Shown here piece by piece: positions 15,001-27,000 of a stretch of 64,000 bases of DNA. Position 1 is the stretch's first letter. Each line of letters begins with the position of its first letter. Position numbers: made by a program. Source of the stretch: Escherichia coli (GTDB lineage: Bacteria; Pseudomonadota; Gammaproteobacteria; Enterobacterales; Enterobacteriaceae); the NCBI RefSeq assembly GCF_003334785.1, contig NZ_QOWV01000005.1; one strand, 5' to 3'.

Positions 15001-18000
15001 GGGTACTGCGGCCTTGACGGATGTTAGTAAACCCTGCGCATAATCTGGGTTGTGAATAATAGTGATATTGCTCTGGTTCGCATAACGTTCGTGCAGTTCA
15101 TTACCACGATAGCCGGTGACTAAAATAATTCGGCTACAAAACTGCAACGCATTTTTGATACTTGTATCAAGAATTGTTCCCTGTTCCCAGGGTAACATCA
15201 TTTTCCATTGCCCCATTCTTGATGATAATCCGGCAGCGGTAATTATACAGTCGATGGCTGACATAGTGGTTCCATTATTTATAGGGGCTAATAACGCCTG
15301 ATAATTGCGTTACTTCCTGATGGATTAAGTTGGGGATAATTTATCCCAGAGAGGTCATAAAGACTCGTGAAAAGTATAGTTGACCCATCGGCATTAGTCA
15401 TTGATTTAGGTGCGCAGAAACGTCCCACTGTGATTTCTGTTGTTGGTGCTGGGGGGAAAACCAGCTTGCTTTTTTGGCTGGCAGAACTGCTCCAGGCTAG
15501 CGGCAGGCGTGTGTTAATCACGACGACGACACATATGTTTATGCCAACGTCTCACTGGCCCGTGGTTTTCTGTCGTGATCCCGCCATGCTTCCTCATGCG
15601 TCTCTTACATCCCCCATTTCATTTTGTTTTCACAGCTGGAAAGCGAACCAGGGAAAAGTGCAGGGATTTACGCCAGAAGCGATTGATGCACTGGTGCAAC
15701 GACCAGAGTGTGACGTAATTCTCATTGAAGCAGATGGCTCGCGTGGAATGCCGTTAAAAGCGCCTGATGAGCACGAACCTTGCATACCCAAAAGCAGTTG
15801 CTGCGTGATTGCTGTGATGGGAGGACATACTTTGGGCGCGAAAGTGAGCACAGAAAATGTCCATCGCTGGTCGCAGTTTGCTGATATTACCGGGTTAACA
15901 CCTGATGCAACCTTGCAACTGAGCGATCTCGTTGCGCTGGTTCGCCACCCTCAGGGGGCGTTTAAAAACGTACCGCAAGGTTGTCGGCGAGTCTGGTTCA
16001 TTAACCGTTTTTCTCAATGTGAGAATGCGATTGCACAAAGCGAGCTCCTTCAACCGCTGCAACAACACGACGTAGAGGCAATCTGGCTGGGCGATATACA
16101 AGAACATCCTGCAATCGCGCGCAGATTTGTGAATTAGCGGCCCGGGTATTCCGGGTTACTGAAAGGATATCCATTGAGGTTGGTATGAATATTTTCACAG
16201 AGGCTGCAAAACTCGAAGAGCAAAATTGTCCGTTTGCTATGGCGCAAATTGTTGATAGCCGAGGCTCGACTCCCCGCCATTCTGCACAAATGTTAGTGCG
16301 CGCCGATGGTTCTATCGTCGGTACAATTGGTGGCGGAATGGTTGAGCGGAAGGTGATTGAAGAGTCGCTTCAGGCATTGCAGGAACGTAAGCCGCGATTA
16401 TTCCATGGACGTATGGCTCGTAACGGTGCGGATGCTGTCGGGTCAGATTGTGGAGGTGCAATGTCAGTATTTATCAGCGTCCATGGTATGCGTCCACGTC
16501 TGGTGTTGATTGGCGCGGGGCATGTCAACCGGGCGATAGCCCAGAGTGCGGCGCTATTAGGATTTGATATTGCCGTTGCTGATATTTATCGCGAAAGCCT
16601 CAATCCTGAACTATTCCCACCATCAACCACGCTTCTCCATGCTGAGTCGTTTGGTGCGGCAGTGGAAGCACTGGATATTCGCCCTGATAATTTTGTCCTG
16701 ATTGCCACGAATAATCAGGATCGTGAAGCCCTCGACAAACTCATTGAACAGCCCATTGCATGGTTGGGGTTGCTGGCAAGTCGTCGCAAGGTTCAGCTTT
16801 TCCTGCGTCAATTGCGTGAGAAAGGCGTGGCTGAAGAACATATTGCCCGTTTACATGCGCCCGTTGGTTACAACATAGGTGCGGAAACGCCGCAGGAGAT
16901 CGCCATCAGCGTGCTGGCAGAAATATTACAGGTGAAAAATAACGCGCCGGGTGGGCTGATGATGAAACCTTCTCATCCTTCCGGACACCAGCTGGTGGTG
17001 ATTCGCGGTGCGGGAGATATCGCCAGTGGTGTGGCGCTACGTCTGTATCATGCGGGTTTTAAAGTGATCATGCTGGAAGTGGAAAAACCGACAGTGATTC
17101 GTTGTACCGTGGCGTTTGCCCAGGCCGTGTTCGATGGCGAAATGACGGTCGAAGGCGTCACTGCTCGCCTGGCAACCAGCTCTGCGGAAGCGATGAAACT
17201 TACCGAACGCGGATTCATTCCTGTGATGGTAGATCCCGCCTGTTCATTGCTTGATGAACTGAAACCGCTTTGCGTGGTGGACGCTATTCTGGCGAAACAG
17301 AATTTGGGAACGCGGGCAGATATGGCACCAGTAACAATCGCGCTTGGGCCGGGCTTTACTGCTGGGAAGGATTGTCATGCGGTAATTGAAACAAATCGCG
17401 GGCACTGGCTCGGTCAGGTGATTTACTCTGGTTGTGCGCAGGAGAATACCGGTGTTCCTGGCAATATTATGGGGCATACCACCCGACGGGTGATCCGTGC
17501 TCCTGCTGCAGGCATTATGCGATCCAACGTGAAATTAGGCGATCTGGTGAAAGAGGGCGATGTGATTGCCTGGATTGGTGAGCATGAAATTAAAGCACCG
17601 TTGACGGGGATGGTGCGTGGCTTGTTGAACGACGGCCTGGCAGTGGTTGGTGGTTTTAAAATTGGTGATATCGATCCTCGTGGTGAAACCGCTGATTTCA
17701 CCAGCGTTTCTGATAAAGCCCGGGCGATTGGCGGCGGCGTACTTGAGGCGTTAATGATGTTGATGCATCAGGGCGTGAAAGCGACAAAAGAAGTGCTGGA
17801 AGTGGCTTAAATGAAAATGGCCGGATGGTATTACCCACCCGGCCTTTAAATTACTGACAAATCACCGTTCCTGTTTTGCCTTCAATCCCTTCTTTCGCTT
17901 TGCTCAATACGGTAATCAGTGCTTCACGACCTGCGCGAGAGCGAGCAAACGAGGCGGCAGCTTCCACTTTAGGCAGCATAGAACCTTTCGCAAAATGACC

Positions 18001-24000: not shown

Positions 24001-27000
24001 TGACAGGCAAAGTGGTTTATTTCACTGTGACTTGCCAAAGTGATTGGTGTTTTCACAGCTATACCTGGGACTAACAATAAGTGTGCCAGAATTATCCGCG
24101 CGGCTGCAAAAGACTAATTTGACGGATAATGTGTGGGGTTGATCACAAATTGATGCCAGCTTCTGGTTGTTTGTAAAATACGAAAACGTTTGGCTTTTTT
24201 TATCGCGTTATTTATTTGCTGCTAAGTATCAGAAATAAGATAAAGGGGCAGGCTATCTCTCTTCAGTTTGATAAACTCACCGCCGTAATTCTCATATTGA
24301 TATAGAAATGTGATATCTCTTCCATAATTTCATTAGAAAATGATAAAAATCTTATGTTTTTATCAAAGCCAATTTCGCCTGAGTTAATATCATCATGATC
24401 TGTGAACCATCAACGTCTTCAATGATCGACTTTTAAGTAAGTCTGGAAGGTAAAGCTATGGAGCTTGCTACTACGCAGTCAGTATTGATGCAAATTCAAC
24501 CGACAATTCAGCGTTTTGCCAGAATGCTTGCCAGCGTTTTGCAGCTTGAGGTTGAGATCGTTGATGAAAACTTGTGTCGCGTTGCCGGAACGGGCGCGTA
24601 TGGGAAGTTTCTTGGTCGCCAGTTGAGCGGCAACTCACGCCTGCTCCGCCACGTCCTGGAAACGAAAACTGAAAAAGTTGTGACACAGTCTCGCTTCGAT
24701 CCCCTTTGCGAAGGTTGCGATAGTAAAGAAAATTGCCGCGAAAAAGCATTTCTGGGTACGCCTGTCATTTTACAGGATCGTTGTGTTGGGGTGATAAGTT
24801 TGATTGCCGTTACCCACGAGCAACAAGAGCATATCAGTGATAATTTACGCGAATTTTCTGATTATGTTCGCCATATATCCACCATTTTTGTTTCGAAACT
24901 TCTGGAGGATCAGGGGCCAGGAGATAACATCAGTAAAATATTTGCGACCATGATCGATAATATGGATCAGGGCGTATTAGTTGTAGATGATGAAAATCGG
25001 GTTCAGTTTGTTAATCAGACTGCCTTAAAAACACTTGGTGTTGTGCAAAATAATATTATTGGGAAACCTATCCGTTTCAGACCATTAACATTTGAGAGTA
25101 ATTTTACCCATGGACATATGCAGCATATTGTTTCATGGGACGATAAAAGTGAATTAATCATTGGTCAATTGCATAACATTCAGGGCCGACAATTATTTTT
25201 AATGGCGTTTCACCAATCGCATACCAGTTTTTCTGTAGCAAATGCACCTGATGAACCGCATATTGAACAATTGGTTGGCGAGTGCCGTGTTATGCGGCAA
25301 TTAAAACGACTCATTAGCCGTATTGCACCCAGCCCATCCAGCGTTATGGTGGTTGGTGAAAGCGGCACGGGTAAAGAAGTCGTCGCCCGTGCAATCCATA
25401 AGTTGAGCGGAAGACGGAATAAACCCTTTATTGCTATCAACTGTGCCGCGATTCCGGAGCAGCTTCTGGAGAGCGAACTGTTCGGTTATGTTAAAGGTGC
25501 ATTTACTGGCGCTTCTGCCAACGGTAAAACAGGGTTGATTCAGGCGGCGAATACGGGCACGCTGTTTCTCGATGAAATAGGTGATATGCCATTAATGTTG
25601 CAGGCTAAATTACTGCGCGCTATTGAGGCACGTGAAATTCTGCCGATTGGTGCCAGTAGCCCAATACAAGTCGACATTCGCATCATTTCTGCAACTAATC
25701 AGAATTTGGCCCAGTTCATTGCCGAAGGTAAATTCCGCGAAGATCTCTTCTACCGACTTAATGTTATCCCGATAACTCTGCCACCGCTGCGTGAACGTCA
25801 GGAAGATATTGAACTATTGGTGCATTACTTTTTACATCTGCATACCCGTCGTCTGGGATCGGTTTATCCTGGCATTGCTCCCGATGTCGTCGAAATATTG
25901 CGTAAGCATCGTTGGCCCGGAAACCTGCGCGAGTTAAGCAATTTGATGGAATATCTGGTTAACGTGGTTCCTTCAGGTGAAGTTATCGACAGCACGCTAT
26001 TGCCGCCAAATCTGCTGAATAATGGCACAACGGAGCAAAGTGATGTAACAGAGGTCAGTGAGGCGCACCTGTCACTCGATGATGCGGGCGGCACGGCGCT
26101 GGAGGAGATGGAAAAGCAAATGATCCGCGAGGCGCTTTCACGTCATAACAGCAAGAAGCAAGTTGCTGATGAACTGGGCATCGGCATTGCTACGCTCTAT
26201 CGCAAGATTAAGAAATATGAGTTGTTAAACACATAACCTCAGTGAATCCGGCCTGAATTCAGGCCGGATATCCTTTTACTTCGTTTTCTCGCAATCCAGA
26301 ACTGTATTTACAATCATCTGATACCCCGTGCAGCGACAAAGATTTCCCGCCAGTCCGCGACGAATTTCCGTAATGGTTAATGGCTTCTCGCGTGGTTTCG
26401 CCAGCATTGCCGTGGTAGCCATAATCAGGCCAGGCGTACAAAACCCGCACTGCACTGCGCCGGATTTCGCATAAGCCTGCTGAACATGAGAAAGTTTTCC
26501 GCCTTTCGCTTCACCTTCCAGCGTGCGGATCTCTTTTCCTTCAGCCCAGGCGGCAAGGTATAAGCAACTGTCTATTGCTGTGCCGTCGACCAACACCGTA
26601 CAGGCACCACATTCACCCACGCAGCACCCTTGTTTGACACTTAGCAGTCCTTGTTCGCGGAGTAATTCCGAGAGCGGCGTGCCTGGTGCGGCGTGAAGCT
26701 GAAAAGGCATCCCGTTAATGGTGCATTCGATGGTAATTGTTTCGCTGTGATTCATTGCAATTTTCCCCCCGCCGCGGCGACGGCTTCGCTAATCACTTTT
26801 TTGGTCATCGTCTGGATGAGATGCAGACGAAACTCTTTACTGGCCCGCCATGAAGAACGCGGGGCGACATCTTGCAGGACAGATTCGCTGATAGCTTCCA
26901 GCGTTTGCAGGTTTAATGGCGCATTTTGTGCAGTCTGTTCGGCATGTTGGCAGCGAATCGGCGTTGGCGCGGCAACACCAAATGCCAGGCGTAATTCGCT

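Follow-up and report, generated by a model that had tools for sequence, protein, structure and literature searches.

Through a reductive pathway of degradation, gut bacteria dispose of the urate that humans excrete into the intestine, roughly one third of the total. The pathway produces ATP together with short-chain fatty acids, and work is under way to engineer it into probiotics against gout; its significance is already in the literature. Here we analyze a stretch of 64,000 nucleotides of the Escherichia coli chromosome (contig NZ_QOWV01000005.1 of RefSeq assembly GCF_003334785.1), to whose whole length we refer as the window, and in it a block at positions 17851-26236 that carries the genes ygeW, ygeX, ygeY, hyuA and yqeA and the divergent regulatory gene ygeV. 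The function of this block is already known, as it was published between 2023 and 2025 with E. coli enzymes. Beyond the pathway papers, we describe a predicted regulatory layout consisting of a sigma-54 promoter, palindromic sites, a CRP site and the architecture of the YgeV sensor, which would be a modest addition to a known cluster.

The pathway has been described by two groups. A cluster that is urate-inducible in distant gut bacteria was identified by Liu et al. (bioRxiv 2022; Cell 2023), who also found that E. coli MG1655 no longer converts labelled urate to labelled acetate when ygeW, ygeX, ygeY, hyuA, ygfK or ssnA is deleted. In the same work ygfK and ygfT were induced by urate, and urate consumption was suppressed in glucose-rich media. 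Li et al. (Life Metab 2025, PMC12507026) reported that XdhD-YgfM reduces urate to 2,8-dioxopurine ("yanthine") and that YgfK and SsnA yield ureidomethyl-hydantoin. Both this paper and a second one by Liu et al. (bioRxiv 10.1101/2025.04.24.650524; Nat Microbiol 2025), in which the order of the steps is the same, describe how HyuA hydrolyzes the ring of ureidomethyl-hydantoin to give 2,3-diureidopropionate, YgeW uses phosphate to remove one of its ureido groups as carbamoyl phosphate, YgeY hydrolyzes the remaining ureido group to leave 2,3-diaminopropionate, and YgeX converts diaminopropionate into pyruvate and two molecules of NH3. YqeA turns carbamoyl phosphate and ADP into ATP and carbamate, a gain of one ATP by substrate-level phosphorylation, and E. 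coli YgeW and YqeA together produced ATP in vitro from 2,3-diureidopropanoate with ADP and Mg (bioRxiv 10.1101/2025.04.24.650524). Of 39 strains, 33 have a carbamate kinase gene inside the cluster (Liu et al.), and the expression of YgeW and YgeY in the gut has been published. One difficulty for this scheme is that the pathway papers conflict on the target of YgeW, which would be the 3-ureido group according to Liu et al. and the 2-ureido group, giving albizziin, according to Li et al. (PMC12507026), a disagreement that is also flagged in a 2025 commentary.

Two further systems follow a similar logic. In the arginine deiminase pathway (ArcB and ArcC) a ureido compound is likewise phosphorolyzed to carbamoyl phosphate, which then gives ATP, a parallel also drawn by Liu et al.; that pathway uses citrulline, whereas the YgeW/YqeA pair uses 2,3-diureidopropionate. 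Reductive pyrimidine catabolism (PydA/PydB/PydC) has the same steps, namely reduction of a ring, its opening by a cyclic amidohydrolase and hydrolysis of a ureido group. HyuA belongs to the dihydropyrimidinase/hydantoinase family, and Li et al. (PMC12507026) relate SsnA and UacX to PydB and PydA. Unlike pyrimidine catabolism, the urate route deals with two rings and two ureido groups, and one of the ureido groups is conserved as ATP where hydrolysis would otherwise spend it.

Identity of the gene block

An open reading frame listing and the RefSeq annotation both give the block as five intact, co-directional genes on the minus strand, with ygeV divergent on the plus strand; the sequence runs reversed with respect to the K-12 coordinates. 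The block is bounded by yqeA, at position 17851, and by ygeV, at 26236. To assign the enzymes we used the curated cut-offs of NCBIfam, and each of the five scored above its own. From the promoter-proximal end, ygeW (22792-23979, with the open reading frame reaching 23982; 395/396 aa) encodes a knotted carbamoyltransferase (NF005538, 825 against a cut-off of 453). It is followed by ygeX, also called dpaL (21538-22734; 398 aa), for a pyridoxal phosphate-dependent diaminopropionate ammonia-lyase (TIGR03528, 651 against 532), by ygeY (20269-21480; 403 aa), for an M20 hydrolase of the YgeY family (TIGR03526, 722 against 322), by hyuA (18831-20216, with the open reading frame reaching 20228; 461 aa), for a D-hydantoinase (TIGR02033, 675 against 393), and by yqeA (17851-18783; 310 aa), for an arcC-type carbamate kinase (TIGR00746, 384.5 against 358). 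YgeW stands apart from ornithine carbamoyltransferase, on whose model it scores 133 bits against a cut-off of 281, and forms a separate "knotted" family. The sequence of YgeX is identical to that of the solved structure 4D9G and YgeW matches PDB entry 3Q98, while a PDB sequence search with YgeY gave no close solved relative. On the plus strand, ygeV (24458-26236; 592 aa) encodes a sigma-54 enhancer-binding protein with the arrangement GAF (with four cysteines)-PAS-AAA+-HTH, where HTH denotes a helix-turn-helix. The first-pass annotation, made from the sequence alone, had described five tightly packed genes of these enzyme types next to a divergent sigma-54 activator, and it was right on both counts.

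This is the very cluster studied in the urate papers. Of its 8386 bases, 8384 are identical in K-12 MG1655, whose enzymes were assayed, and the two mismatches change one amino acid in HyuA and one in YqeA. With megablast, 5289 of the 5426 complete E. coli genomes were found to contain the block, and at the matching genomes RefSeq names the genes arcC (yqeA), hyuA, ygeY, dpaL (ygeX), ygeW and ygeV. The genomic context agrees with the location given in that annotation, between molybdenum-hydroxylase systems and purine permeases. On one side the block is flanked by xdhABC; on the other lie yqeB/yqeC/mocA (14686-17810) and then ygfK, ssnA, ygfM and xdhD (6238-14364), with xanQ, guaD and ghxQ. Thus the genes of the lower module are linked, within the window, to those of the upper module (xdhD-ygfM, ygfK and ssnA) and to selenium/molybdenum cofactor genes.

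For the comparison with other organisms we collected 80 loci around YgeW homologs, one genome per species, on which the E. coli proteins were then mapped. In approximately 34 species, belonging to the Enterobacterales, the Vibrionaceae and Morganella and including one betaproteobacterium, ygeV is divergent from ygeW-ygeX-ygeY-hyuA-yqeA, and YgeW is at least 70% identical across phyla. Other arrangements were also seen. The Aeromonas loci have a ygeV-like gene that is co-directional and upstream, or none that was detected, and much longer intergenic spacers (95-156 bp); some Betaproteobacteria have the block without ygeX, and in metagenome-assembled genomes (MAGs) of Bacteroidota and Riflebacteria ygeY is located upstream of ygeW.

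In the pathway as published, the neighboring XdhD-YgfM, YgfK and SsnA take urate to ureidomethyl-hydantoin; HyuA opens the hydantoin, YgeW passes one carbamoyl group to phosphate and YqeA phosphorylates ADP with the resulting carbamoyl phosphate, and YgeY hydrolyzes the second ureido group to leave 2,3-diaminopropionate, from which YgeX produces pyruvate and ammonia. The initial idea of ring opening, release of carbamoyl phosphate and formation of ATP by a carbamate kinase has therefore been demonstrated with the E. coli proteins (PMC12507026; bioRxiv 10.1101/2025.04.24.650524), and the suggestion of an anaerobic, urate-derived feedstock is borne out by the reconstituted urate pathway and by the loss of labelled acetate in the ygeW, ygeX, ygeY and hyuA mutants. 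The further statement that both the full route and its inducer were uncharacterized holds for the inducer only, since the route was published between 2023 and 2025. Taking function and control together, we are highly confident that the block encodes the second, lower part of reductive urate degradation via 2,8-dioxopurine ("yanthine") and is transcribed as an operon under the control of YgeV.

Transcription of the five genes

The layout of the block is that of an operon, with all genes on the same strand, short gaps (57, 57, 52 and 47 bp along the five genes), one upstream promoter, one downstream terminator and a conserved gene order. In many species the spacer between hyuA and yqeA is of only 0-13 nt. 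An intrinsic terminator (17819-17844, minus strand), shared with the convergent yqeB, lies directly after the stop codon of yqeA; it has a 10-bp GC stem followed by AUUUUCAUUU, with a minimum free energy (MFE) of −22.6 kcal/mol and a z-score of −5.5. From this arrangement we infer that the five genes form one operon, which would be transcribed from a single sigma-54 promoter at 24088-24073 and would end at the strong terminator after yqeA.

Three stem-loops interrupt the block on the minus strand. The one directly after the ygeW stop codon (22764-22785) is conserved, and in an alignment of 15 Enterobacterales three of its eight pairs show compensatory changes on both sides. The one in the spacer between ygeX and ygeY (21500-21522; MFE −15.3 kcal/mol, z = −2.8) lacks a U-run and is present in many species. 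The third, in the spacer between ygeY and hyuA (20232-20251; z = −2.8), has an 8-bp GC stem followed by UUUUU and comparable hairpins in other species, and it is possibly a partial terminator or a stabilizer of the transcript. GC-rich stem-loops are thus found directly after the stops of ygeW, ygeX and ygeY, but not of hyuA, and have equivalents across the Enterobacterales. A scan of positions 17000-27000 against Rfam at E ≤ 1 matched no family, so neither the 5′ leader nor the intercistronic hairpins correspond to known RNA elements.

The hairpin after ygeY bears on an alternative, namely that there are two transcription units, ygeWXY and hyuA-yqeA, with the distal pair expressed by read-through or from a start of its own. 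A single five-gene transcript has to accommodate the U-tailed hairpin, the fact that the literature speaks of a "ygeWXY" operon, and the absence of yqeA from the printed gene list of the YgeV iModulon (PMC12132413). Nevertheless, hyuA shares that iModulon with ygeWXY (PMC12132413), the order and orientation of the five genes are kept in more than 40 loci, the two distal genes are nearly contiguous in many species, and no promoter-like element stands out before hyuA. Moreover, GC hairpins also occur after ygeW and ygeX, which indicates a general intercistronic feature rather than an operon boundary. A split into two units is therefore improbable, although it is the alternative that we take most seriously. 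As for the single five-gene operon, the intercistronic hairpins look selected and probably grade expression along the transcript instead of marking its boundaries; in the proposed mechanism, the conserved stem-loops after ygeW, ygeX and ygeY would each contribute to this gradation.

The terminator region differs from that of K-12 in one respect. In the window, the spacer between yqeA and yqeB (17811-17850) is 40 bp long and has a single terminator hairpin. In K-12 MG1655 (27395-27614 of the retrieved K-12 locus) and in all the listed best E. coli matches it is 220 bp long and has the same hairpin twice, flanking an element of the repetitive extragenic palindrome/bacterial interspersed mosaic element (REP/BIME) type. 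Judging by the short version, a REP insertion with direct repeats of approximately 32 bp at its ends appears to have been lost precisely or to have been absent ancestrally.

YgeV and the predicted control region

YgeV has the features of a sigma-54 enhancer-binding protein, that is, an AAA+ domain with GAFTGA (residues 347-352) and Walker A (GESGTGKE at 300) motifs and a C-terminal HTH of the Fis type. The Pfam matches are Sigma54_activat (PF00158, E 2e-70), the AAA lid, HTH_8 (E 3e-13) and a PAS domain; Response_reg was not matched in YgeV with Pfam. The RpoN holoenzyme has been shown in vitro, by genomic systematic evolution of ligands by exponential enrichment (SELEX), to bind the spacer between ygeV and ygeW. 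The putative ygeW promoter, TGGCACacttaTTGTT (24073-24088, minus strand), is the sole exact match in the window and would place the transcription start near 24062. Its form is TGGCAC-N5-TTGT, with the −24 element and the spacing exact and GT instead of GC at the −12 position. The pattern TGGCA(C/T)-N5-TTG is present without mismatch on the ygeW strand in 35 of the 35 ygeV-ygeW spacers compared, E. coli included, at 68-231 nt before the start codon, while in 300 shuffles a mean of only 0.1 spacers contained it (searched as TGGCAY-N5-TTG). It is this conservation across species that makes the promoter convincing, as the pattern is uninformative within this window by itself.

A CRP-like site, TGTGATCAACCCCACA (24132-24147), is centered near −77.5 with respect to the inferred start. 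Sites of this type are located at −77.5/−78.5 in 19 of the 35 species and at −67.5, one helical turn nearer, in four more. According to Li et al. (PMC12507026), the ygeV-ygeW spacer has a native Crp site, which was replaced in their work, and there is repression by glucose. A CRP site near −78, between enhancer and promoter, fits the reported glucose repression and suggests that CRP helps to bend the DNA.

Farther upstream, an alignment of 15 enterobacterial ygeV-ygeW spacers revealed a conserved block (approximately 24255-24325) that contains the palindrome TATCAATATGAGA (24290-24302), centered near −234. With up to one mismatch, TATCA-N3-TGATA was found in 31 of the 35 spacers, at −171 to −248, compared with 1.1 spacers after shuffling. 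In the window there are eight copies where 2.3 are expected, and four of the eight are located in three intergenic regions that precede sigma-54-like promoters. Besides ygeW, these are the regions upstream of xdhA and ygfK, both outside the block. The sigma-54-like promoter of xdhA, TGGCGTaaatcTTGCC (29994-30009, minus strand), is preceded by palindromes at 30129-30141 and 30108-30120, 21 bp apart, and the promoter and both sites are kept in six species. Upstream of the sigma-54-like promoter of ygfK, TGGTGCgattgTTGCT (14437-14452, minus strand), there is a perfect palindrome (14622-14634), with a perfect CRP consensus (14516-14531) between enhancer and promoter. The same elements appear in the ygfT-uacT spacer of K-12 (45933-46367 of the retrieved K-12 locus, just beyond position 1 of the window), where the identical 13-mer TATCAATATGAGA, a CRP-like TGTGATTGCCTCCGCA and a sigma-54-like TGGCACtccacGAGCA facing uacT follow each other in this order, so the urate permease appears to be under the same control scheme. 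The four regions agree with the YgeV iModulon described in the literature, which contains ygeWXY-hyuA, xdhABC and ygfK-ssnA-ygfM-xdhD (PMC12132413), and for this reason we propose TATCA-N3-TGATA as the enhancer site of YgeV. Most likely, judging from these sequence comparisons, YgeV binds the palindrome located approximately 230 bp upstream of ygeW, as well as similar ones before xdhA, ygfK and uacT. In the model, YgeV bound at the palindromes, with its GAF-PAS sensor and no receiver, would activate the sigma-54 polymerase by looping of the DNA, and CRP, at about −78, would sit between the YgeV enhancer and the promoter.

Several observations tell against this model of control. The −12 element of ygeW is TTGT, TTGA or TTGG in the 35 species and never the consensus TTGC, and in this single window TGGCAC-N5-TTGYW with up to one mismatch gives three matches where 5.8 are expected. 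The palindrome is absent from four spacers of Erwiniaceae/Cedecea, and the proposed enhancer of ygeW, near −234, is unusually far upstream. An AT-rich palindrome of this kind also occurs in unrelated AT-rich DNA and inside ygeX (22446-22458). In the papers examined, no experiment demonstrates a dependence of ygeW transcription on either ygeV or rpoN, and the reduced expression of ygfT in a ygeV mutant is known to us by secondary citation only. A probable control of the operon by YgeV and sigma-54 is supported by the RpoN SELEX, the YgeV iModulon and the −24/−12 element conserved in every spacer.

Some other features of the control region were recorded. A second palindrome-like site, TATCATCATGATC (24388-24400), lies about 60 bp before the ATG of ygeV and overlaps a conserved GATAYTAAC block; it is possibly the −10 region of ygeV or a site for autoregulation. 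The copy of TATCA-N3-TGATA inside ygeX is perfect and may be due to chance or be an internal regulatory site. Upstream of ygfK there is an alternative sigma-54-like register, TGGCAAgagtgGTGCG (14447-14461), which overlaps TGGTGCgattgTTGCT and is 9 bp apart from it. We also considered the palindrome as a Fur box and rejected it, as in a comparison by eye the half-sites point the other way. Finally, a sequence resembling the PurR operator, ACGAAAACGTTTGGCT (24180-24195), is located at about −125 of the ygeW promoter, with three mismatches to the perfect palindrome. It is the only such match in the window (0.36 expected), and it is kept in E. coli, two Citrobacter, K. indica (with one further substitution), Atlantibacter (with two) and Trabulsiella, but absent in more distant species.

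In the N-terminal region of YgeV, residues 1-260 model as a GAF and a PAS domain. An AlphaFold model of residues 1-272, built from 23 orthologs, has a mean predicted local distance difference test (pLDDT) score of 76. In Foldseek its best match across two domains is the N-terminal GAF-PAS part of E. coli DhaR (4lrx_C, E 6e-9), and its first domain matches single GAF domains. In the GAF domain C84, C87, C93 and C109 (CxxCx5C...C) are invariant among the 23 orthologs (residues 1-140 correspond to 24458-24880 of the window), which hints at a metal or redox center. Searching the PDB by sequence with residues 1-268 gave only weak PAS matches and none for the GAF part, and a protein database search with the sensor region returned mostly fragments or frameshifted copies, save for one Firmicutes homolog (P0046, from a MAG) that keeps a CxxCx6C version of the motif.

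Two described regulators can be compared with YgeV. The NCBIfam model of DhaR aligns with residues 97-589, but the score, 230 bits against a cut-off of 551, indicates that YgeV is not DhaR. The promoter at which DhaR acts is of the sigma-70 type, and what it senses are the proteins DhaK and DhaL. GAFTGA and the four invariant cysteines of YgeV are not known as features of DhaR. The clostridial "DioR" (Nie et al., 2019, BMC Genomics) is a sigma-54 activator whose predicted targets are dpaL, ygeW-ygfK-ssnA-ygeY, yqeB/yqeC and the gene of a purine permease. The phylum and the gene order differ from those of the YgeV system, and the likeness lies in the genes that would be regulated; the Firmicutes homolog P0046, which may or may not be DioR, shares the N-terminal motifs of YgeV, including CxxCx6C. 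Given the predicted control of equivalent genes by DioR, sigma-54 control of the urate pathway may be widespread.

Putting these features together, we tentatively propose, at clearly less than even probability, that YgeV is a direct sensor in which the four-cysteine GAF center (metal, Fe-S or thiol redox) and the PAS domain would combine a signal of anaerobiosis or redox state with a metabolite of the pathway (urate, 2,8-dioxopurine or a ureido intermediate). It would bind the palindromes at ygeW, xdhA, ygfK and uacT, with CRP near −78 as a positive architectural partner. In the cases known to us in which CRP acts at a sigma-54 promoter it represses, so a positive role would be unusual. Regulation has received little space in the pathway literature, as Li et al. 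mention only the native Crp site, Liu et al. do not mention ygeV, and regulation is missing from the open questions given in the 2025 commentary. A map of the control region, with its sigma-54 promoter, CRP site, shared palindromes and cysteine-bearing GAF-PAS sensor, could help in looking for the natural inducer and could explain the differences among strains in the rate of urate consumption and the glucose repression, for both of which the pathway papers offer observations but no explanation.

A different role has been suggested for YgeV, that of a mainly indole-responsive virulence regulator ("IsrR") and not a dedicated activator of the block. In enterohemorrhagic E. coli (EHEC) ygeV is induced by indole, the LEE (locus of enterocyte effacement) is expressed less in a tnaA isrR double mutant, and the corresponding mutant of C. 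rodentium is attenuated (PMC9426417); the authors themselves leave undecided whether the effect on the LEE is direct. As the sensor of YgeV is of the GAF-PAS type and a receiver domain is absent, the label "orphan response regulator" used in that paper is incorrect. The divergent linkage of ygeV and ygeW extends to approximately 34 species, the majority of them without the LEE island, and the conserved putative sigma-54 promoter of ygeW would require an enhancer-binding protein. The iModulon and the ygfT data, the latter as cited at second hand, also point to purine genes. A mainly virulence-related role is therefore quite unlikely, and we retain YgeV as the probable activator of the urate genes.

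Other functions considered and minor observations

In another function that we considered, the block would carry out the "hydantoinase process" on exogenous 5-substituted hydantoins, and HyuA would be the D-phenylhydantoinase and YgeY the D-carbamoylase that give D-amino acids in a manner unrelated to purines. The RefSeq name of HyuA is indeed "D-phenylhydantoinase", and the NCBIfam D-hydantoinase model matches it. However, the substrates that HyuA cleaves include two compounds derived from urate, ureidomethyl-hydantoin and 5-ureido-dihydrouracil (PMC12507026), the deletion mutants are blocked in the conversion of urate to acetate (Liu et al.), and such a process leaves YgeW, YqeA, YgeX and the linkage to ssnA, ygfK and xdh unexplained. 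As the main role of the block this process is already contradicted, and we give it very little credence.

The degradation of urate by the reductive route also has to be set against fermentative breakdown of allantoin and oxalurate. An early hypothesis for YgeW was that it is the long-sought oxamate carbamoyltransferase of that breakdown. That YgeW acts in this way, with YqeA recovering the ATP, is the least credible of the alternatives, for although the logic is the same (a ureido compound and phosphate give carbamoyl phosphate and then ATP) and purine genes are nearby, two groups found 2,3-diureidopropionate to be the substrate of YgeW (PMC12507026; bioRxiv 10.1101/2025.04.24.650524) and the pathway runs via 2,8-dioxopurine, not allantoin.

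At the other end of the block, a terminator-like hairpin (26246-26269, plus strand) is located after ygeV and before the convergent xdhC. Beyond it, the start of xdhA differs between annotations, as those made with the Prokaryotic Genome Annotation Pipeline (PGAP) use an ATG at 29938 (765 aa) and that of K-12 places the start at 29899 (752 aa). The 39 intervening bases vary mostly at third codon positions across six species, like coding sequence, so xdhA probably begins at 29938.

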